NCBI GenBank assembly: GCA_046485285.1 | Contig: JAWOHE010000060.1 | Location: forward strand, 1-29,910 | Reading direction: 5' to 3' | Origin: a bacterium | GTDB lineage: Bacteria > Hydrothermota > Tepidihabitantia > Tepidihabitantales > Tepidihabitantaceae | Length of the DNA: 29,910 nt | Shown here: one piece after another, positions 12,180 through 25,692 of the stretch | Numbering within the stretch: position 1 is the stretch's first letter | Layout: each line of letters opens with the position of its first letter | Program-made: the position numbers and the translations under genes | The notes under the pieces: model-generated | Seen by the model: only the letters and a program-made list of their open reading frames with translations | Databases searched by the model: none | What the model was told of the DNA's origin: nothing

Positions 12180-14762
12180 CTAGTCAACAACTATCGCCTT
12201 GGCGGTCAGTTCGCAGTCCGGCCCGGACAGGCGCAGGAAGTAGACCCCGCGGCTGGTTCTCTCCGCCCGCCACTCCACCGAGTGGTCGCCGGGCGCGAGG
12301 AACATCCCATCCGCCAGCTCCGCGACCAGCCGGCCGGCGCGGTCGTAGACCGCGAGTCGGACCGGCCCGGCCCGTCGGAGCGCGAAGCGCACTTCGGTCC
12401 GTCCGCGGACCGGGTTCGCGTCGAGCGCGAGCGCGGGGAGCGGCCGCCTGCCGGCGGCAGGCTCGGTGACCGCGGTCGGATCGAGAGTGGTGTACTTGAC
12501 CGCCCGACCTGCCTCACGGGGCGCGGCGGCCGGGGCGTGGCGGCCGTCGAACAGCTCCTCGATGGCGATGGCACGGATCGGGTCCTGGATGCCCATCGTC
12601 GAGCTCGCGGAGCGGTTGGCGGTCTGGTACTGGAAGACAACGACGTTGTCGCCGGTCGGGGTCGCGGCAGTCGTGTCGTAGATGATGACCTGAAACTTGT
12701 CGCGGACGCTCGAGGGGCTGTAGTAGGCAACCGAATCGTACTGGACGATGAAGCGGTGGTTCTCCTCGTCGTGGTACCAGTAGACGTAGCCCTGGCTGTT
12801 GTAGCCGGGGTAGAGGTCGTCCCAGTTCGGACAGAGCATCCCGGGCGGGTTCTGGGGGTCGGGCAGGCGCCGGTTGGCATAGTGGCGCTGGGAGTAGACC
12901 CCGGGGCATATCCAGCCGTCGGCCGAGACCGAGAGCCGGGTGTAGTCGGTCCCATAGAAGCGGAACGGGCCAAACGAGGGCGGCAGGTCGACGCCGATGA
13001 CGTCGTCGTTCTGAGGGTAGTCGATGCGCGTGCCGAGGCCGCGGATCTCGACCCAGTCATACACCGGAGCCTGGGCGTAGGCGCTGTCGATGTTGTCGTA
13101 GGCCCAGTAGCGCGCGGGCGTGCGCGGGCCGTCGGGCATCGGGTCGGTCACGAGGTACGGCCCGACGGTGAGGCTGAAGCCGGCGGCCCAACTCGACTCA
13201 GCCGCGCTGATGGCAAGGTCGAACCGGGCGACGTGCCCGCGGGGAGCGTCAGGCCGGGCCCAGACCAGGAACGGGATAGCGTTTGTGGCCGTGTCCTGGC
13301 CGGCGATGTCGCCGTAGGCGGCGTGGGCACGGGTGACGACCGCGAAGCTGTCCTCGGTCGAGACGAGTGCCTGGACTGCGTGGGCGTCGGCCATGCCGTA
13401 GTTGCGCAGGGTCAGGTAGACCTCGGCGGTCTCGGCCGCGTCCCAGCGGCCGTCGTTGTTGCCCCGGATGTCGCTCAGCCGCCAGCCGAGCAGCCCGACG
13501 AGCGGCCGGTCGAGCGGCACCGGGCCGCCGAGCAGGGCGATGGCGGCTACGCCGGCCCGCGTCACCTCGGTGCAGAAGCCGTTGTCGTTGTAGCCGGCAC
13601 CGATCGAGTCGTGCGAGGTGTGGTAGTGCGGGTTCGTCGGCCAGAAGTCCTCGATGCCGGTCAGCGCGAGGTAGCCCCGGTTCCAGAACCCGCCGTGGTC
13701 GGAGTTCTGGTTGTCGGACATCATCTGCTTATTGGTCGGCAGGGTGGTGTAGGTGTCGGCGACCGCGATGAACCAGTCGCAGAATGGCTCGCAGGCCGGG
13801 TTGGCGATCTTGGCCATCAGGTCGAGGTCCTCGGGCGTATTGTCGGCGTAACCGATCATGTCGAAGTTGATGACGCCGAGGATCGAATCGCCCCGGGCCC
13901 GGGCGGTGTCGGCATACCACTTGCTGCCATAGAGGCCGAACTCCTCGCCGGTCCAGGCGATGAACTTGAGGTCGTGAGTGAACCGGTAGCCCTGAGTGAC
14001 GCGGCAGGCCTCGACCGCGGCGGCGGTACCGGAGGCGTTGTCGTCCGCTCCTGGCGCGTTGGCGGCGGCGTAGCTGTCGATGTGGCCGCAGATGATCGCG
14101 TAGGGATTGCGTTGGCCGGAGGCGCCGTAGCGGACGCCGATGACGTTTGGGGCGTGGCCCGGGCGATGGGACTGGAGGATGACCGTGTCACAACCCCAGG
14201 CGCGGAAGCGGTTTGCGACCCAATCGCAGGCGGCGCGGCAGGAGTCGCCGGTCGAGTAGCGGTTGCGAAACTCCTGGAGCCGGCGGACGTAGCTGAGGAC
14301 CGACTCGGGTTCGACGGCCGCTACCATCGCCTGGACGAGCGGGTTCGGGCTCACCGGCGGAAGGTCGTAGGCGGGCTCGAGAACCGTCCAGCCGGAGAGG
14401 TCCACGGGCCCGACCATTGCCCGCAGCCCGGTAAGGCGCAGGTGGCCGGGCTCGTCGAGCAGGACGAGGTACTCCTCGCCATCGAACTCGAGGACGGTGC
14501 CAGCCTCAAACAGCGCGGCGCGGGCGGACTCGTCGAGCGGGTAGACACGGAACAGCCGCTCGGCGACGGGCGCGCGGTCGAGCACGCGTCCGCCGGCGGC
14601 GGTCAGCTCGCCCTCCGACCCGACCACCAACAGGCCAGTCCGGAGCGCGCCGACGACGCGGAAGGCGGGGACGAGGTCGGCAGGTCGAGCGTCTGGGACG
14701 ATACCGAGCACGTCGCCGGCGACGGCCACGCTCAGACAGGCAAGACACAAGAACAGGCGCAA
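12180..14762 (-). CDS. M28 family metallopeptidase with T9SS-type C-terminal domain
   Basis: ICGHIDS, PGADDNASG, WTGEEFGLYGS, NFDMIGY, SDH, YHTSHD motifs; tail YDRAGRLVA...RGVYFLRL. TTG start at 14762 behind AGGAGG (the track gives GTG 14792). Confidence 0.92.
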   Translation of the reverse strand: MRLFLCLACLSVAVAGDVLGIVPDARPADLVPAFRVVGALRTGLLVVGSEGELTAAGGRVLDRAPVAERLFRVYPLDESARAALFEAGTVLEFDGEEYLVLLDEPGHLRLTGLRAMVGPVDLSGWTVLEPAYDLPPVSPNPLVQAMVAAVEPESVLSYVRRLQEFRNRYSTGDSCRAACDWVANRFRAWGCDTVILQSHRPGHAPNVIGVRYGASGQRNPYAIICGHIDSYAAANAPGADDNASGTAAAVEACRVTQGYRFTHDLKFIAWTGEEFGLYGSKWYADTARARGDSILGVINFDMIGYADNTPEDLDLMAKIANPACEPFCDWFIAVADTYTTLPTNKQMMSDNQNSDHGGFWNRGYLALTGIEDFWPTNPHYHTSHDSIGAGYNDNGFCTEVTRAGVAAIALLGGPVPLDRPLVGLLGWRLSDIRGNNDGRWDAAETAEVYLTLRNYGMADAHAVQALVSTEDSFAVVTRAHAAYGDIAGQDTATNAIPFLVWARPDAPRGHVARFDLAISAAESSWAAGFSLTVGPYLVTDPMPDGPRTPARYWAYDNIDSAYAQAPVYDWVEIRGLGTRIDYPQNDDVIGVDLPPSFGPFRFYGTDYTRLSVSADGWICPGVYSQRHYANRRLPDPQNPPGMLCPNWDDLYPGYNSQGYVYWYHDEENHRFIVQYDSVAYYSPSSVRDKFQVIIYDTTAATPTGDNVVVFQYQTANRSASSTMGIQDPIRAIAIEELFDGRHAPAAAPREAGRAVKYTTLDPTAVTEPAAGRRPLPALALDANPVRGRTEVRFALRRAGPVRLAVYDRAGRLVAELADGMFLAPGDHSVEWRAERTSRGVYFLRLSGPDCELTAKAIVVD

Positions 14763-14829
14763 GACTCCTCCTGAGAGGTTGACGGAATACACTTGCCAAA
14801 GTCAGGTCGCTCAGCGACCCTTAGCGGAT

Positions 14830-14916: not shown

Positions 14917-15954
14917 ATGTTGCAGGGTTCGCCTGTCATCTGGTGCGCGGTAGCGGCGACCGCCTCCGTTGCGCTCTGGCTATTTGTATTCGGGCGCGAC
15001 GCGCGCCTGCGCCGCCGGCTCGCCCGGCTCGCGGCCGGGGCGGGCGACATCAGGCTGCCGGCTGACGCGCTCCGGCGCGCGCCGGCACGGGTGCGTGCCA
15101 TTTTGGATCGAGCGTTGGCCCGCCTCGTGGCGAACCAGCACCTCGACGCCGCCCGCCTAATCGAAGAGTCCGTGGATAACACGGACGCCGCGGCCCGGGC
15201 CGCGCTCTTGAATCTCACGGCTGCCTGTTACCATCTCGCGGGTCGGCACGCGGCCGCGGCCGAACGCTACGAGCGATCGGCGCGGTTAGCCGCCGAGTCG
15301 GGCGCGGGTGGAGTCGAAGCCGCGGCCTGGTCGAATCTCGCGCTGCTGCGAATTGTCCAGTCCGAGCCGCGCCTCGCGCTTGATGCCCAGGAACGGGCGC
15401 TCGCGCTCGACCGGGCGGCCGGGAACCGTATCGCGACCGCGACCGGACTCGGCCGCCTCGGGCTGGTCCGGCAGATGCTGGGCGAGACCGCCCGCGCGCT
15501 TGACCTGCACCTCGAGGCGCTGGCGATTGATGAGGCGGCAGGTAACCGGCGCGGTTCGGCAAACACGCTCGGCCGACTCGGGCTGGCCTACCAGGTCAGC
15601 GGCGAGTTCGAACGGGCGCTCGAGCACTACCGGCGCGGCCTCGCGTTGGCGCGCGCGGCCGGGTACCGCGCCGGCGCGGCGGAACTGCTAGGCAATATCG
15701 GCTTGCTCCACCTCGAGCGGGACGAATTCGAGCCGGCCCTCGCCAGCCTTCTCGAGGCGCTGGCGATATTCGGCCAGCAGCGGGATACTGCCCGGGCGGT
15801 CAACACCGTCAGCGGACTGGCGCTGGTACGCCGGCGGATGGGGCGGGTAGAGTTCGAGGAGGCTTGCCGCGCGCGCGGCATCGCGGCCGCGGAGCTCAGC
15901 CGGCTGTCGGGACTGCTCAACCGGGTCGCGGCCCGCAACCCGGTCGGCCGGTAG
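14917..15954 (+). CDS. tetratricopeptide repeat protein with N-terminal TM anchor
   Basis: TPR_12-like repeats (LGRLGLVRQMLGETARALDLHLEALAI; LGRLGLAYQVSGEFERALEHYRRGLAL); hydrophobic N-terminus. Confidence 0.85.
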   Translation: MLQGSPVIWCAVAATASVALWLFVFGRDARLRRRLARLAAGAGDIRLPADALRRAPARVRAILDRALARLVANQHLDAARLIEESVDNTDAAARAALLNLTAACYHLAGRHAAAAERYERSARLAAESGAGGVEAAAWSNLALLRIVQSEPRLALDAQERALALDRAAGNRIATATGLGRLGLVRQMLGETARALDLHLEALAIDEAAGNRRGSANTLGRLGLAYQVSGEFERALEHYRRGLALARAAGYRAGAAELLGNIGLLHLERDEFEPALASLLEALAIFGQQRDTARAVNTVSGLALVRRRMGRVEFEEACRARGIAAAELSRLSGLLNRVAARNPVGR

Positions 15955-19292: not shown

Positions 19293-21293
19293 CTACTCGA
19301 TGACCAGCTTCTGTGACACCGACCTGCCGCCGACCGAAAGCCGGCAGAAGTAGATGCCGTTCGCGACCCGGCCGCCCCGCTCGTCGGCGAGGTTCCAGGT
19401 CGCGGTACTGACACCGGTTTCGGCCGGGCCGTCGAACAGCGACCGCACCAGCCGGCCGTTCGCGTCGTAGATTCCAACGTTCAGCCGGCCTGCGTGCGCC
19501 GCGGCCCAACTGAGGCTGACCTGCCGCCGTGCCGGGTTCGGCCCGGTCTCGAGCTTGACACTCAGCGCCGGCTGGAACGGGTCGAACTCCTCGACACCGA
19601 CCTCGCCGGCCACGTAGTGCAGGGCGTTCCGGATGACCAGCGCCCAGTCGCCGTTGCGATTCGGGTCGGCGTAGATTCCCGGGTACTGGTTCACGCCGAC
19701 GACCTTGCGGTTCGAGCTGACTGCGACATACGGCCGGCCGTCGTTCCAGCGCGCGACCGAGTCGGAGCTGATGAAGGCTGCGCCGGCGGCCAGCCACTCG
19801 CCGACCGCGCCGACGCCCGACATTATCGGGTGGCCGGCGTTGTGCCAGCCCATCGTCGTCGAATTGGTGACGTTGCCCCCGACCCCGATCGTTGCATAGT
19901 CGCCGGTCGTGACCCGGCCGGCCAATGCCCAGCCCGTGACGAAGCTGGCGTTGGCGACGACTACGCCGCCACCAGCATCAACGTAGTCGGCAAGCACGTT
20001 GCCGAGTGCGGACGGGTCGGCGTAGGTGTAGTTCGAGTGCACGCCGACCACGCTGTAGGGCAGGAGGTCCGGCAGTGGCGGCGTCGAGTATCGCACGTCG
20101 AGGTAGGTCAGCGTGTCGCCCAGCGCCATCAGCCGGACACCGAGCGTGGTGTCGGGCGGGCCGTAATCGGAGTAGAGCCACAGGGCCCGGAAATCAGCGG
20201 CGGAAGGCTCGATCGCGCCGCGCTCGACGCTGTTTAGAAAGCCTGAGCCGGTGTAGCCGCAGACCGCGAGGAGGGTGTCACGGTAGATTGCTCCGGCGTG
20301 GGAGCGGCGGGCGGCCTGGAGGTTGTTGCAGGCCTCCCAAGTCCCGGTTGAGACGGTGTAGGACCACGCCTGGTTGGTGACCGCCCCGGAGGCGTTGTAG
20401 CCGCCGAAGACGTAGATGACCCAACCGTGGGCCGGGTCGTTGTAGGCCGCGCCGTTGCCCCAGCTCATCCCGAAGGGCATTGCCGGGCCGGTGGTCCAGT
20501 TGTTCCCGGAGATCGAGTACTTGAGGAAGTTGGGCGTGCCGATATAGGGCAAGCCGGAGGCGGTCTGGCCGCCGATGAGGTAGATGGTATCGCCGATCGC
20601 GGCCGCAACCTGGCTTCTCAGCGCCAGCGGCATATCGGTCAGCGCGGTGAAGGTGTTGGCGGCCGGGTCATAGCGCCAGGCCTTGTTGAACGTCGCGGAC
20701 GCGGTGGCGCCACCGAACATGTAGGCGTTGCCGCCCGACGCGGCCATCGCGTAGTACATCAGGCCGGCCTGGGGCAGGACCGCGCCGGCGGTCCAGGTGT
20801 TGGCGCTGAGGTTCAGCTTCGTCATGTTGTCGTACTGGTCGCCGGCCGAGGTGTAGCCGCCGCCGACGCAGATCAGCGTGTCCGAGACCGCGACCGCGTT
20901 CGCGTTCGAGACGCCGCCGCCCGGGTGGCTCAGTCCCTCGCTCCAGGTGCCCGTTGCGAAGTCGAATATCTGGTCCGGGACGCGGTTGGGCGCGGGCGAG
21001 ACCTCTCCGGTCACGACGTGGAGTTTGCTGCCGACCACGACCGCGGCAAGGCGCGAGATGGACTTGGGGCACGGGGTCCCATAGGTCCAGGTCACGTTGC
21101 CGGCGTCGGTGTACGGCGACTCGCCGACCGGGCACGCGCCGGCGCCGAAGTCGCTGTGCGGGTTGATCACCTCGACCGCCGGCGCGGCGAGCACTGGCTC
21201 GACCTGTTCGCCGCCGGTGGCGGTTCGCGGCCCGGCGAAGACGACTGCGGCCGCGCAGAGCGCGACCAGCAGTCCGATTACGGTCCTGTTCAT
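19293..21293 (-). CDS. secreted Kelch-repeat protein with FlgD-Ig/T9SS-type C-terminal domain
   Basis: Signal peptide; Kelch GG motifs (AYMFGG, IYLIGG, IYVFGG) with W-terminated blades; tail IYDANGRLVRSL...WNLADERGGRVANGIYFCRL; AAGGAG RBS. Confidence 0.88.
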   Translation of the reverse strand: MNRTVIGLLVALCAAAVVFAGPRTATGGEQVEPVLAAPAVEVINPHSDFGAGACPVGESPYTDAGNVTWTYGTPCPKSISRLAAVVVGSKLHVVTGEVSPAPNRVPDQIFDFATGTWSEGLSHPGGGVSNANAVAVSDTLICVGGGYTSAGDQYDNMTKLNLSANTWTAGAVLPQAGLMYYAMAASGGNAYMFGGATASATFNKAWRYDPAANTFTALTDMPLALRSQVAAAIGDTIYLIGGQTASGLPYIGTPNFLKYSISGNNWTTGPAMPFGMSWGNGAAYNDPAHGWVIYVFGGYNASGAVTNQAWSYTVSTGTWEACNNLQAARRSHAGAIYRDTLLAVCGYTGSGFLNSVERGAIEPSAADFRALWLYSDYGPPDTTLGVRLMALGDTLTYLDVRYSTPPLPDLLPYSVVGVHSNYTYADPSALGNVLADYVDAGGGVVVANASFVTGWALAGRVTTGDYATIGVGGNVTNSTTMGWHNAGHPIMSGVGAVGEWLAAGAAFISSDSVARWNDGRPYVAVSSNRKVVGVNQYPGIYADPNRNGDWALVIRNALHYVAGEVGVEEFDPFQPALSVKLETGPNPARRQVSLSWAAAHAGRLNVGIYDANGRLVRSLFDGPAETGVSTATWNLADERGGRVANGIYFCRLSVGGRSVSQKLVIE

Positions 21294-21509
21294 CGTGTTC
21301 TCCTTGTTCGTTGCTGCGGGTCCGATTCGGACTTGCCCGGCGCCGCACTGGCGGCTGGCACCGAGTTCAGTGACGGACGGATGTTCGGGCTGGTTCGCTT
21401 CTCACCTCCCTGATGGTCGACATTGGCTTCCCCGGCCGGGCCTGCCGGGCATTCCGGGGTGCGGGAGCGGGCCGCGGACGCCTCCCGCACCATCATCACT
21501 CATTGCGGC

Positions 21510-21537
21510 AGTATAGCACCGGTGGCCATCGCGTCAA
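21510..21537 (-). promoter_or_regulatory. sigma70-type promoter (extended -10), about 210 nt upstream of the Kelch ATG
   Basis: TTGACG-N16-TATACT with TGC before the -10. Confidence 0.65.
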
Positions 21538-21589
21538 TATCCAAGCAGGCAACGGTCCGATCTCCGGCGTCGGGGCAAGGCCCGACTGG

Positions 21590-23419
21590 CTACTCGACGA
21601 CCAGCTTCCGCGTGTGGGTTGCCTCGCCGGCCCGGACCCTCAGCAGGAACACTCCTCGCGCAGGAGGCGCGAGAGCAAGGCCGCCGGCTCGCCCCGGAGT
21701 CTCGGTCCGGTAGCGGATGCGGCCTGATGCGTCAATCAACTCAACCGTGACTGCGCGAGTGCCGGGCAGGTTCCAGGTCAGGCTGGTCCGGCCACGACAG
21801 GGGTTCGGTGCAAGTACTATCCCCGGCGCGGGGCTGTTCGGCTCAGCCGTGATGCCCGCCCCGGTGGGGAGCAGGACCAGCTTGCCATAGAACGCGGGCT
21901 CACGCCAGAGCGAGTCAGCCAGGTTGCCGGGCCACCAGCCACAGGGGAGAGAGTCGTCCGCCATCACCAGCCAGAGCCCGAGCGTGTCGCCGGTCGGCCG
22001 GGCGGCGAGCTGGTAGGGCAGGTCCCCGAAGGGTATCCGGCCCTCGATGACGGTGGTGCCGCCGAGGCTGCTGATTGCGACCGTGTCGCCCGGAATGGGA
22101 AGGCCCGCCGGGTCCCAGGTGTCGGCGCGGCACCAGCAGTAGACCGCCTCGTCGCTGCCATCCGCTGAAACCCGGAGGAAATAGCCGCCCTCGGAACGGT
22201 CGGTCGACCAGGTCCCGTCGTTGTTCGCGTCGAAGAACAGCCCGACCATGTCGCCGGGCGCGCGGCCGGCGGAGCGGGGCAGTTCGGCCGCGAAGTAGAG
22301 GTAGCTGGCGTCGTGGCAGAACCACGCCCGCGCCGACCCGACCGGTCGGGGACCGCATCGCCAGCCGTTGAGGTTGGAGAGGTCGCGCGCGGCGTAGGCC
22401 GAGTCCCATTCGCCCGCGGTGAGCAGGCCGTCGAACCCCGGGACCGAGCTGACACGATAGGACCGGAGCGTGTCGGTCGAGGCAAGCAGGGCCATGCGGC
22501 AAGTGTCGTTCCCAGGGTTCTCGTCGTCAGCAAGGCGGGTCAAGACAACGAGGGTGGCGTGGTTCCACAGGCCGGTGACGTACGTGCCTTCGGGGAACCG
22601 GACGGTCGTGCTGTCGCCCGGCGCAATCGTGACCTGGCGCGTGTCCTGCCAGACAGGCGTGCCGGCGGAGTCAAGCCAGCTGAGCGTGACCGGGCAGGTG
22701 GCGGCAATGGTGCCGAGGTTGGTCACCCGGCAGGCAGGGTCCAGCCGCGCTCCGGAGCGGACCATCGAGCCGGCCGGGCTGGTGAACGGGCCGGCAGCGA
22801 AGTCACGGTCAACGGACCGGAGCGAGATGTCGTCGGCGAAGACCTTCGCCAGCGGCGTCCCTCAACCGTCGAAGGTGTAGCTGTAGAGCGCGACCTCGAT
22901 CCGGGCGATGTCGGCCGGGCTTACGCCGGGGAGGTTATCGGCGATCTCGCGGGCGATGTCGAGCCGGTACTCGCTCCAGGCCGGGTCGGCGACCCGGACC
23001 AGGCTCAGGGTCGGGGTTGGTTGCCAAGTGGCATAGGTGGAGTAGACGTAGCGCGTTTCGCCGAGCTCCGTGCCGTTGCGGTTCTGGTAGCTGACGCTGA
23101 AGCAGGCCGCCGGCCAGCAGGTTGACGTGCCGCCGCTGTGTTCGAAGCTGGCCCAGAAGGTGAGGGTCAGCGCCGGGCTGGCAACGTCGACGGTCTGTCC
23201 AAGCCGACACCAGCCCGGGTTGTCGTACTGGTAGGCCATCGCCTCGTAGTCCGGGTCCGGGTGGTAGTGCACCGCCCGGTTGCTGGTGTGCGTCCCTGCG
23301 CCGCCCTCGGTGTGTACCCAGCCGGTACCCAGCGGCTGTTCGAAACTGCCATTGACCAGCAACTCGGCACCCGCGGACAGGCCACAGGCGATGATGACAG
23401 ACAGGATTGACTTCAGCAT
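21590..23419 (-). CDS. candidate selenoprotein (609 aa, Sec at codon 186): CBM-like N-domain, CARDB-like and CBM9/DOMON-like domains, T9SS-type tail
   Basis: Track ORFs 22862-23419 and 21590-22765 share one frame, separated only by TGA 22862-22864 (YSYTFDG*GTPLAKVFADD). SECIS-like hairpin 11 nt downstream. The signal peptide is in part 1 and the sorting tail (APNP...IDASGR...RGVFLLRV) in part 2. Confidence 0.8.
22835..22850 (-). promoter_or_regulatory. putative bacterial SECIS element
   Basis: TGA-N11-GGCGAA[GGTC]TTCGCC. Confidence 0.75.
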
Positions 23420-23448
23420 TCGCGCCTCCGTTTAGGTTGCTCCCCAGC

Positions 23449-23476
23449 AGTATAGGCTCCGGCGCACGGCGGTCAA
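23449..23476 (-). promoter_or_regulatory. sigma70-type promoter
   Basis: TTGACC-N16-TATACT upstream of GGAGG and ATG 23419. Confidence 0.65.
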
Positions 23477-23504
23477 CAAGGTGACCGCGGCAGTGCCGGC
23501 CGAC

Positions 23505-24404
23505 TCAGCGGGTGAGGACGAGCGGCCGGGTTTCGAGCCGGCCGGGAATCGCGAGCACGCACTGGTAGACCCCGGCCGGCAGGCCCGCCGGGTCGAGCGC
23601 GAAGCGGTGCGGCCCGGATGCCAGGGTGCCATTGGCAAGCCGTCTGACCGTGCGGCCGGCGGCGTCGATTACGCTGAGGCTGACCGGGACGGGGTGCGGG
23701 AGCTCGAAGCTCACCGTGCTGCGACCGGCGGACGGGCTGGGCGCGACGGAGAAGGCGCGGGCCAGTCCTGACCCGGGGCTCTCGTTGATTGCCGAAACCC
23801 GGGCGAGCACGAAGTCGTCGGCGGAGACCTCCGCCCACGGCTGGGTTCAGCCGTCGGATGTGAAGCCGTACATCAACACTCGGACCTGGTGGACATCCGC
23901 GGCAATGACTCCCGGGAGGTTGCCGCTGAGTTCCGCGCCGATTGACAGCCGGTACTCGCGCCAGTCCGGGTCGGTGACCTCGATGAGGTGCAGTATCGGC
24001 GTGCTGGTCCAGTTGCTGTTGCCGTCGCGCAGGCAGAACAGGGTGGTGCCGAGTATGTCGCCACCGGCGTCGCAGTACTCGAGGCCGACTGAGGCGACCG
24101 GCCAGCAGGTGACCGAGCTGTTGCCGATGCGGAACTCGGCCTGGAAGGAGAACTCGAGCCCGGTGTCCGGGACGGTGACGAGCTGGCCGAGCTTCATCCA
24201 GCCCGGGCCGCCGTACTGGTAGACGCGGGCCTCGTAGTCGGCATCGGGGTGATAGTCCGCGGCCCGGCTGAAGACCTGGTTGCCGTAGCCGTCGCGGGCC
24301 TGGGTCCAGCCGACCGACAGGTCCTGTTCGAAGTCGCCGTTGACGAGCAGGCTCTGACCCGGGAGCAGGCCAAGGACAAGGGTGAGGGCAAGGGCAATTC
24401 TCAT
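23505..24404 (-). CDS. candidate selenoprotein (299 aa, Sec at codon 186): CBM-like N-domain and T9SS-type tail
   Basis: Track ORFs 23847-24485 and 23505-23810 share one frame, separated only by TGA 23847-23849 (YGFTSDG*TQPWAEVSADD). Start ATG 24404 behind GAGG. Tail IDAAGRTVRRL...LPAGVYQCVL. Paralog of 21590-23419. Confidence 0.8.
23820..23835 (-). promoter_or_regulatory. putative bacterial SECIS element
   Basis: TGA-N11-GGCGGA[GGTC]TCCGCC, extendable by an imperfect lower stem AGCCGT/ACGACT. Confidence 0.75.
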
Positions 24405-24457
24405 TGTCATCCTCTGCGGCACATCGGGAAGCACCGCTACTTCGCGTTCACAGTACA

Positions 24458-24530
24458 ATTCTACGCGACGGGTCTGGGCAGTCAATCGCGGCCCCGGTGC
24501 TGTTGACAGGCGCGGGGCGCGGCCTAGTCT
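24458..24530. promoter_or_regulatory. back-to-back divergent sigma70-type promoters
   Basis: Minus: TTGACT(24480-85)-N16-TAGAAT(24458-63). Plus: TTGACA(24503-08)-N16-TAGTCT(24525-30). Confidence 0.6.
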
Positions 24531-24546
24531 TGTGAATTATCCTCAG

Positions 24547-25692
24547 ATGATTGCGCTCCTCCTGCTTCTTGCACTTGCCGGCCCGGTCGTGCCGACCGGG
24601 CTCGAAGCGGCCGACACGCCCAACGATGAGGGCGGGAGCATTCGGCTGAACTGGTGCTGGCCGGAGGCGGAGTCGGCCCGGGCGCAGGCGTTCGTCGTCC
24701 AGCGCTCGACCGCCCCGGACTCCGGGTTCGAGGCAGTCGGCGAGGAACCGGGCACCGGCCGTGATTTCGTCGATGCCGGCGCGCCGGATGGCGTCGAGCA
24801 CTGGTACCGGGTCGGAGCCGCGACCGCAACCGACACGGCCTGGAGTGCGATTGCCGGCCCGACCCGCGCTTCGGCGCAGTGGTTCAACGCGGCGCGGGCC
24901 AACGTCCTCGTGATACTCGTGGTGATATCGGCCGTGTTCGGCTACTACATTGCCCGGGCGCGGCGGGGCGTGAAGATGCACATCCGGCGCATCGCCGGGC
25001 TCGACGCGATTGACGAGGCGCTCGGCCGGGCGACCGAGATGGGCAAGCCGATCCTGTTCAGCTTCGGGCTCGGCTACATCACCGACATGGTCGTCATCGC
25101 CGCCCTGCCGCTGCTGCGCCGGGTCGCCGGCCGTTCGGCCGAGTACGCGACGCGGCTCCTCGTGCCGAACTCCGACCCGCTGGTGATGACCGCGGCGCAG
25201 GAGACGGTCCGGGAGGCGTACGTCCAGGCCGGCCGGCCGGACCTGTACAGCGCCGACAACGTCAATTTCCTGACCTCGGACCAGTTCGGCTACGCGGCCG
25301 GGGTTGACGGCCTGATAATGCGCGAGAAGCCGGGCGCGATATTCTGGCTCGGCTACTTCTACGCCGAGTCGCTGATAATGGCCGAGACCGGCCACTCGGT
25401 CGGCGCGATCCAGCTCGCGGGCACGACCGAGACGACCCAGTTGCCGTTCTTCGTCGCGGCCTGCGACTACACGATGATCGGGGAGGAGATCTACGCCGCG
25501 TCCTGCTACCTGAAGCCCGAGCCGATGATGCTCGGGAGCATCAAGGGCGAGGACTTCCTCAAGCTCGCGCTCATCGTCGTCGCGACACTGACGGTGCTCG
25601 TCGGCACCGCGGCGGCGCTGCTGGGTGACCGGGCCGGGTTCCTCGCGACCGCGTTCCGGACCGCGGCCGGCTGGTTTGCGCTCAACTACTAG
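24547..25692 (+). CDS. fibronectin type III + DUF6754-like membrane protein
   Basis: Signal peptide; FN3-like PTGLEAADTPNDEGGSIRLNW...YRV; TM; then IRRIAGLDAIDEALGRATEMGKPI...FYAESLIMAETG...QLPFFVAACDYTMIGEEIYAAS (DUF6754-like, recalled not searched). Confidence 0.8.
   Translation: MIALLLLLALAGPVVPTGLEAADTPNDEGGSIRLNWCWPEAESARAQAFVVQRSTAPDSGFEAVGEEPGTGRDFVDAGAPDGVEHWYRVGAATATDTAWSAIAGPTRASAQWFNAARANVLVILVVISAVFGYYIARARRGVKMHIRRIAGLDAIDEALGRATEMGKPILFSFGLGYITDMVVIAALPLLRRVAGRSAEYATRLLVPNSDPLVMTAAQETVREAYVQAGRPDLYSADNVNFLTSDQFGYAAGVDGLIMREKPGAIFWLGYFYAESLIMAETGHSVGAIQLAGTTETTQLPFFVAACDYTMIGEEIYAASCYLKPEPMMLGSIKGEDFLKLALIVVATLTVLVGTAAALLGDRAGFLATAFRTAAGWFALNY

Follow-up and report, generated by a model that had tools for sequence, protein, structure and literature searches.

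Based on the analysis presented here, we propose that two tandem genes, called A and B below, in a 29,910-nucleotide stretch of bacterial DNA (contig JAWOHE010000060.1 of assembly GCA_046485285.1; hereafter the window) are each translated as a single polypeptide, with the in-frame UGA at codon 186 read as selenocysteine (Sec). Judged from the sequences, this is very probably the correct reading, and the two genes are most likely members of a large, unannotated selenoprotein family in the uncultured phylum WOR-3. The original prediction, made from the two genes, was of a candidate new selenoprotein family, and three bodies of evidence now support it: the codon at this column is TGA throughout the family, a hairpin of the selenocysteine insertion sequence (SECIS) type follows it, and the genome encodes the machinery for Sec insertion.

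An in-frame UGA conserved across the family

TGA is codon 186 in gene A and in gene B, as had been predicted. The frame stays open beyond it for 113 further codons in gene A and for 423 in gene B, and the read-through products are alike across the TGA (39% identity over 280 residues, E 1e-55), which bears out the predicted continuation into a homologous segment; the post-TGA segments themselves, TQPWAEVSADDFVL and GTPLAKVFADDISL, are homologous. In-frame start codons next occur 12 and 32 codons past the two TGAs, beyond a conserved strand, so that a restart at those codons would lose this strand. It had also been argued that two independent nonsense mutations at the same codon are implausible. 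Taken alone, this argument is weak, because paralogs could inherit one mutation, and the case for a selenoprotein therefore rests on the conservation of the TGA across the whole family.

We searched 272 genomes of the phylum in six frames for the N-terminal domain (N-domain) and found it in 116, with E<1e-20 in 107 of them (a hand count of the result table). A genome can hold up to nine paralogs; that of the window has six copies. Our codon census covers 82 distinct copies with E<1e-20, at 75 loci (L018-L092), out of about 289 matches reported. The column codon is TGA in 82/82 copies and TAA or TAG in 0/82. Relative to the domain model, it stands at the end in 70 copies, one codon later in 11 and three codons later in 1, and it is followed by the conserved segment G-x-P-x-A-E/K/R-V-S/F/L-A-D-D-x-S-L. 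The terminal stops of these copies are mixed (32 TAG, 27 TAA and 13 TGA, with 10 copies running off the locus); TGA is therefore an ordinary terminator in these organisms, and it is the internal stop that is specifically TGA. In the 72 copies whose end is in view, the frame beyond the TGA measures at most 130 codons in 19 and at least 400 in 53. A copy on contig C87 of the window's genome (L023) reads G-G-C-U-G, where U is Sec, and meets a TAG only 24 codons past the TGA; it may be truncated or decaying.

These results bear on two explanations without Sec. If UGA were reassigned genome-wide (genetic code table 4 or 25), or if the TGA were a sequencing error, the frame would be open as observed, and the open frame is all that favors such an explanation. 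Gene A itself ends in TGA, as do 13/72 family genes, and the internal TGA recurs in independent assemblies from many genomes and metagenomes, so the probability of either is practically nil. The second explanation takes the TGA as a true stop, within a gene pair or a pseudogene, and expects a secreted protein of 185 residues, with the downstream part translated on its own as another protein. Public annotation follows this scheme: a word-indexed protein search returned 21 proteins, of which 19, including the window's own product, are N-domain homologs of 183-192 residues, leaving 18/18 database homologs at this length, and the named ones are all titled “hypothetical protein [candidate division WOR-3 bacterium].” Together with the N-part of gene B, 20/20 of these end at one alignment column. 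A true stop is nevertheless highly improbable, since the stop at the column is only ever TGA while the terminal stops are mixed, the frame then runs on for some 114 or some 450 codons in all copies with their end in view but L023, and the segment after the stop is a conserved strand of the same domain, with no start codon ahead of it; in addition, relatives lacking the stop are continuous, as described below. We therefore return to Sec insertion as the preferred reading and consider what follows the UGA.

A SECIS-type hairpin downstream of the UGA

An adjacent 3' SECIS had been expected, and a SECIS-type hairpin does follow the UGA. The nucleotide likeness of genes A and B is far higher just 3' of the TGA than elsewhere, and a perfect stem of 6 base pairs (bp) with a loop of 4 nucleotides (nt) is found after the UGA in 81/82 copies. 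In these 81, the spacer measures 11 nt (41 copies), 14 nt (39) or 17 nt (1), and the loop is GGUC (73), AGUU (6) or GGUU (2). The 14-nt spacer of about half of the copies fits the insertion of one codon after Sec. By mononucleotide shuffling of the same 60 nt, such hairpins are expected in 3.7/82 copies; they occur in 0/82 when the test is made 150 nt upstream and in 7/71 when it is made past the terminal stops.

The two arms of the stem covary. In an ungapped alignment of 35 copies, 99.5% of the cells pair and 3/6 pairs show changes on both sides; 0/500 shuffles reach the observed values, and all slid registers pair far worse. Stem variants such as GGCAGA/UCUGCC, GGCAAA/UUUGCC, AGCGGA/UCCGCU, CGCGAG/CUCGCG and UGCGAG/CUCGCA are compensated at synonymous positions, so selection on the protein does not explain them. 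Other changes reach the protein: between the hairpins of genes A and B one G-C pair becomes A-U, and the encoded residues change from E..S to K..F. Across the family, the stem arms set the residues around the central Val to E-S in 34 copies, K-F in 33 and R-L in 10.

In the accessible text of PMC13188914, the consensus for bacterial SECIS elements (bSECIS) has a loop of 3-9 nt, a G within its first two positions and 16-37 nt between UGA and loop. The window's hairpins agree with this consensus (loop GGUC, 6-bp stem, 17 nt from UGA to loop). We applied a bSECIS energy criterion of -7.5 kcal/mol or lower; the gene A hairpin has -9.7 kcal/mol in its minimal and -17.2 in its extended form, and the gene B hairpin -7.3 and -11.4, respectively. 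Minimum-free-energy folding of the 76 nt after each UGA yields z-scores of only -1.27 and -0.29, and the element was found through alignment because folding energy alone did not reveal it.

When one genome for each of 185,579 species was scanned for TGA, 11 nt and the hairpin, 35 matches were returned, 34 of them beside the family domain, and every taxon-named one of these comes from candidate division WOR-3; the odd one is an Acidobacteriaceae record with no family domain near. A strict scan of the window's genome (UGA followed by a 6-bp hairpin with an xGUx loop) gave 13 matches, of which five are family copies; the others look like chance matches in non-coding frames.

Sec machinery and its distribution in the phylum

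The genome of the window (2.34 Mb in 102 contigs, 88% complete) answers the question of Sec machinery, which the original prediction had left to be checked. It encodes a tRNA-Sec (73.2 bits), for which ARAGORN gives the anticodon tca, and SelA (537.7 bits), SelB (357.5 bits) and SelD (334.8 bits), all four over curated cut-offs. The selD gene adjoins selB (G000:C37:9674-12542, where G000 is this genome; L009, L015) and has its own in-frame TGA, in the context S-C-A-G-U-A-S-K, which indicates that Sec decoding is in use in this genome. Eighteen nt after this UGA, which the strict scan missed, comes a GC stem whose loop is AGUUG.

Of the 272 genomes of the phylum, 120 have a selA match above the cut-off. 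We counted the co-occurrence of the family with selA by hand from the search tables, and relatedness among the genomes inflates the figures. Among the 107 genomes with a strong family match, selA is over the cut-off in 100; four others have sub-threshold selA fragments (G221, G123, G133 and G145), and another, G223, has SelB (350.7 bits) and tRNA-Sec (77.6 bits). There are 20 genomes with selA and no family member. Thirteen taxonomic families lacking selA have no family member (for example f6, 0/11, f28, 0/12, and two with 0/6 each). The direction is clear: the family tracks selA across the phylum. Five weak matches in selA-less genomes (L093-L097) were set aside; they cover only the N-terminal two thirds of the domain, inside larger proteins, and since they stop short of the domain end they are uninformative on the Sec column.

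Relatives without the stop

A profile of 59 read-through sequences was compared with 1.84 billion cluster representatives and gave 524 matches. In the best 150 of these, which we broke down further, 113 end at the conserved column, 20 are fragments and 17 run through. Alignment of the 17 with hmmalign places Cys at the column in P0034, P0053 and P0118, an adjacent Cys in P0054, P0071 and P0099, and other residues in the rest. At the DNA level, the column is TGC in L101 (=P0034), in L102 (a 90% relative), in the second copy on L106 and in L098 (=P0053). Twelve metagenome relatives have TGA (9/12, then the hairpin) or TGC (3/12). TGC is thus the sole sense codon at the column in close relatives, where TGG, CGA and GGA never occur; the original expectation that homologs would have TGA or a Cys codon there, and no other stop, agrees with these data.

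In 3/4 of the DNA-confirmed Cys forms the stem is broken. In these three (L101, L102 and the second copy on L106, all on metagenome contigs), a Ser codon in the 3' arm has become Cys (A-E-V-C), and this change is what breaks the stem; the new Cys, eight residues past the column Cys, is a possible disulfide partner. The fourth form, L098 (G193:C1:2499788-2500732, minus strand), comes from a genome that also has several TGA copies.

The full-length relatives share one order of parts, namely a leader, the sandwich domain described below, an optional middle region and a sorting tail. Because the 17 stop-free relatives are continuous and have the same architecture, the natural product should be one chain. 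The same sandwich without a stop at the Sec column is also found inside very large proteins, P0100 (2727 aa) and P0092, P0118 and P0166 (1359-1862 aa), one of the four being named a kelch repeat protein of a Thermoplasmata archaeon; the fold is therefore wider than the Sec-bearing family.

Fold of the Sec domain and a possible Cys partner

We modeled residues 1-208 of gene A with AlphaFold2 from 59 aligned sequences, with Sec replaced by Cys, and obtained a beta-sandwich (pLDDT 94.6, pTM 0.88). Its last long strand consists of residues 190-202, which are encoded 3' of the UGA; this is the role that had been predicted for the segment, and Sec lies in the loop 183-189. Foldseek comparison with the PDB found the carbohydrate-binding modules (CBMs) CBM61, CBM16, CBM4 and CBM11, sugar-recognising F-box domains and lectin-like phage tailspike domains (probability 1.00, E 4e-8 to 1e-5 overall and 1e-7 to 1e-5 for the CBMs, query-normalised TM-score 0.42-0.57, identity 9-20%). 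Residues 1-205 match no family in Pfam or NCBIfam, including the curated CBM families. As modeled, the domain is a CBM-like or lectin-like beta-sandwich, and the predicted CBM-like character holds at the level of fold.

A Cys accompanies Sec in nearly all members, at one position or another. In the 59-sequence alignment (A4), the Cys of a TCWP motif is present in 37 sequences, 32 of which have no Cys before Sec; among the 22 that lack it, 20 have C-U and one has Cys four residues after Sec. Likewise, of the 113 representatives that end at the column, 82 have Cys as their last residue; the TCWP Cys is found in 15, and C-x-x precedes the stop in several of the other 17. P0034, with Cys at the column, has Ser in place of the TCWP Cys. 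Genes A and B have G-U at the Sec position and the distant TCWP Cys. One subfamily has the motif C-U-S-G-H-C, with Cys both before Sec and four residues after it, and another has H-T-C-U-G.

The near-constant presence of a Cys by Sec (TCWP, C-U or CxxU) suggests either a selenenylsulfide or a two-ligand site. For the two window genes a bond from Sec to the TCWP Cys had been proposed originally; it would be a plausible special case of such pairing, and the complementary pattern of Cys positions supports it indirectly. Whether for redox chemistry or for ligand binding, a surface-exposed centre on an exported protein is a possible function, which we put forward tentatively.

Putative export signals

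Both ends of the proteins resemble export signals. A leader of hydrophobic residues, 3-14 as gauged by eye, stands ahead of LLVNG, and the AlphaFold2 model has a helix at residues 2-12 of gene A, at lower confidence. At the other end, the gene B tail matches TIGR04183 (31.7 bits, cut-off 23), and the gene A tail matches FlgD_ig (PF13860; 28.4 bits, cut-off 27), its TIGR04183 score of 16.8 bits being under the cut-off of 23. Por_Secre_tail or FlgD_ig ends are likewise found in six long forms from other genomes (Sec read as Cys) and two full-length relatives, with two of these eight tail matches below the curated cut-off; the middle regions of these proteins have no family assignment. Both window genes thus end in a putative sorting tail, as had been predicted; the secretion machinery that would go with them is considered below.

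The position of the tail bears on a variant of the proposal, in which the UGA mainly terminates translation and Sec gives the full-length, sorted form when selenium is available. Such a selenium-dependent switch would set the amount of protein that reaches the surface and is compatible with our main proposal. It fits the location of the sorting tail 3' of the UGA, and bacterial Sec insertion competes with release factor 2. The truncated product would, however, be without the last sandwich strand and unlikely to fold; we consider the switch unlikely.

Weighing the selenocysteine reading

We hold to the reading of UGA-186 as Sec, and the following observations count against it or against parts of it. 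First, our counts run over copies related by kinship and so overstate the number of independent events. Second, the coupled residues E-S, K-F and R-L stand at positions i and i+2 on one face of a strand, and their coupling could be partly at the protein level. Third, an Rfam scan of 21500-24500 with E up to 10 found no SECIS family (its only match, to a snoRNA, is by chance). Fourth, 12 nt past its TGC the Cys form L098 retains a hairpin of 5 bp with the loop GGUCA, perhaps as a relic of a recent Sec-to-Cys change. Fifth, in the single-contig genome G133 the only trace of selA is a 114-residue C-terminal piece (70 bits), with a family gene that has the TGA some 2 kb away (region G133:C1:1643097-1645917); frameshifts in the assembly may be the cause, or the Sec trait may be decaying.

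Two further points concern the export and the bonding partner. SprA_N has no match in the window's 88%-complete genome, nor in any control genome, and the best PorV match in the former (20.7 bits) falls short of the cut-off of 27. The term “type IX secretion” is therefore used here as a label of similarity and not as the name of a demonstrated pathway. None of the 17 full-length relatives has the TCWP Cys, not even the three whose column residue is Cys, and a simple bond between Sec and Cys100 is therefore not the whole story.

Finally, the genomes G128 and G160 have TGA copies and no detectable selA or selB. They fit an explanation in which the hairpin promotes decoding of the UGA by a tRNA for Trp, Cys, Arg or Gly, near-cognate or suppressor, and so yields a full-length, selenium-free protein, and the inserted residue is indeed not nameable from sequence alone. 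Both genomes are, however, fragmentary assemblies (300 and 220 contigs). The family follows selA and is absent from selA-less lineages, the GGUC loop and its spacing equal those of E. coli fdhF, and close relatives with a sense codon have TGC and no other. Taken together, these facts make read-through by another tRNA very unlikely, and Sec remains our assignment for the UGA.

Gene layout and neighborhood

The features discussed above are collected in the table. Gene A is composed, from N to C terminus, of a signal-like N-terminus, the Sec beta-sandwich and the sorting-type C-terminal domain. Its start is the ATG at 24404, preceded by a Shine-Dalgarno-like AGAGG (24411-24415 on the plus strand); a second possible ATG lies at 24410, two codons upstream. 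Gene B starts with the ATG at 23419, with a Shine-Dalgarno-like GGAGG upstream (23425-23429 on the plus strand). Its middle region has no Pfam match above threshold, and the single database homolog besides itself is P0176 (42% identity).

The window is about 68% G+C, and no tRNA genes were found in it. Directly downstream of gene B lies a gene for a Kelch-repeat beta-propeller protein with FlgD_ig and Por_Secre_tail, so that gene A, gene B and this gene form three consecutive genes with sorting tails. A divergent gene for a DUF6754 membrane protein adjoins gene A, and genes for a TPR protein and an M28 peptidase lie farther away.

Table. Features of genes A and B, other family copies in the same genome (G000) and neighboring genes. 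Positions without a contig refer to the window.
Feature	Position	Strand	Remarks
Gene A, recoded open reading frame	23505..24404	minus	299 codons and terminal TGA (23507-23505); short form
Gene A UGA codon 186, predicted Sec	23847..23849	minus	family-wide conservation of the column
Gene A SECIS-type hairpin, GGCGGA-GGUC-UCCGCC	23820..23835	minus	11 nt 3' of UGA; codes for part of W-A-E-V-S-A, last beta strand
Gene A beta-sandwich domain	23799..24350	minus	residues ~19-202, spans the UGA; TCWP Cys is residue 100
Gene A C-terminal sorting-type domain	23508..23747	minus	residues ~220-299; PF13860 FlgD_ig match
Gene B, recoded open reading frame	21590..23419	minus	609 codons and terminal TAG; long form with extra middle region
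Gene B UGA codon 186, predicted Sec	22862..22864	minus	column conserved as for gene A
Gene B SECIS-type hairpin, GGCGAA-GGUC-UUCGCC	22835..22850	minus	11 nt 3' of UGA
Gene B beta-sandwich domain	22814..23362	minus	residues ~20-202; aligned to gene A
Gene B middle region	21812..22813	minus	residues ~203-536
Gene B C-terminal sorting domain	21593..21811	minus	residues 537-609; TIGR04183 Por_Secre_tail
Family copy	G000:C6:9673-10221	minus	TGA and hairpin
Family copy	G000:C13:408-971	plus	TGA and hairpin
Family copy	G000:C58:1792-2340	minus	TGA and hairpin
Family copy	G000:C87:9673-10152	minus	TGA and hairpin
Kelch-repeat beta-propeller protein	19293-21293	minus	FlgD_ig and Por_Secre_tail
DUF6754 membrane protein	24547-25689	plus	355 bits
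TPR protein	14917-15951
M28 peptidase	12183-14792

Proposed mechanism and significance

We suggest the following mechanism for the production of these proteins. SelB carrying Sec-tRNA(Sec) would bind the hairpin 11 nt past the UGA and deliver Sec against the release factor. The ribosome would then melt the hairpin and translate it into the last strand, A-E/K/R-V-S/F/L-A-D-D, of the CBM-like sandwich. The hydrophobic N-terminal segment would route the chain through the Sec translocon, and the Por_Secre_tail or FlgD_ig C-terminal domain may direct it to or across the outer membrane. There, Sec in the loop before the last strand could pair with a nearby Cys to form a selenenylsulfide centre, which may serve for redox chemistry, or for the binding of a ligand or metal, at the cell surface.

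In its boldest form, our proposal is of a nearly Sec-obligate, exported family with a lectin fold, in which an extracellular Sec-Cys centre acts on a chalcogen, a metal or an oxidised substrate by capture or reduction, and in which a SECIS embedded in a strand dictates pairs of residues. We offer this as a working idea that may well need revision. If it is true, the surface role of the Sec-Cys pair would be unlike that of the intracellular redox enzymes of the known bacterial selenoproteome, and RNA pairing within beta-strand codons would dictate which residue pairs (E-S, K-F, R-L) are allowed. With UGA-186 read as Sec, the family gives a clean natural example of a SECIS constraining a protein sequence. 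Public records divide each member in two, listing the first 185 residues as a hypothetical protein and leaving the downstream piece an orphan; it follows from this that hundreds of genes in the phylum would be mis-annotated and the selenium demand of the phylum underestimated.

Comparison with known systems

The recoding mechanism is canonical. The closest likeness is to E. coli K-12 fdhF, which has an in-frame UGA-140, an 11-nt spacer and a stem with a GGUC loop inside the coding region, and which depends on the SelA, SelB, SelD and tRNA-Sec machinery that is also present in the window's genome. The proteins are unrelated, fdhF encoding a cytoplasmic molybdoenzyme and the present family an exported beta-sandwich, and the RNA elements differ in that the upper stem of fdhF is interrupted by an unpaired U, whereas the predicted SelB target here is a plain 6-bp helix. 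With its small size, its uniformity and its close likeness to the fdhF element, the hairpin makes the recoding directly testable in E. coli reporters.

The Cys-Sec pairing recalls mammalian thioredoxin reductase, which has the vicinal Cys-Sec motif GCUG. In the majority of members, Cys directly precedes Sec and Gly often comes after it, and L023 reads G-G-C-U-G. Here, however, the motif is internal, part of a beta-sandwich loop and not of a flexible C-terminus, and the window genes differ again in having G-U and the distant TCWP Cys.

In fold, the domain is like beta-sandwich CBMs and tailspike lectin-like domains. It has an N-terminal NGxFE strand and a C-terminal A-x-V-x-A-D-D-x-S-L strand. 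In contrast to CBMs, it belongs to no sequence family, and with 9-20% identity to solved structures the CBM likeness is one of fold only; none of the solved CBMs listed above is described with Sec. As cargo, the proteins are like type IX substrates (type A C-terminal domain, TIGR04183/PF18962) in having a C-terminal domain of about 75 residues and a hydrophobic leader, and they differ from them in the SprA_N and PorV results given above.

We found no paper linking selenoproteins with WOR-3, and the sole paper found to pair selenocysteine with type IX secretion concerns, in its accessible text, hydrothermal-vent plume isolates. WOR-3, signal peptides and secretion are absent from the main texts of PMC13188914, PMC12013277 and PMC13326102, and carbohydrates from those of PMC13188914 and PMC13326102; the supplements may list families.

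With other predicted bacterial selenoproteins, as far as the accessible text of PMC13188914 and PMC12013277 describes them, the family shares a conserved UGA, a consensus hairpin, Cys homologs and Sec machinery. According to the same text, most bacterial selenoproteins known so far are redox enzymes, almost every selenoprotein has Cys homologs in far greater number, and prediction pipelines depend on those relatives. The WOR-3 family is unusual in that Sec forms outnumber Cys forms, the fold is that of a binding module, the proteins have putative export signals and there are multiple paralogs. Its pattern is the opposite of the known one: among the best 150 of 524 representatives, 113 end at the column and 3 are clear Cys forms, and the proteins are lectin-like or CBM-like, not thioredoxin-like or metalloenzymes, have putative export and sorting signals, and occur as several paralogs per genome.

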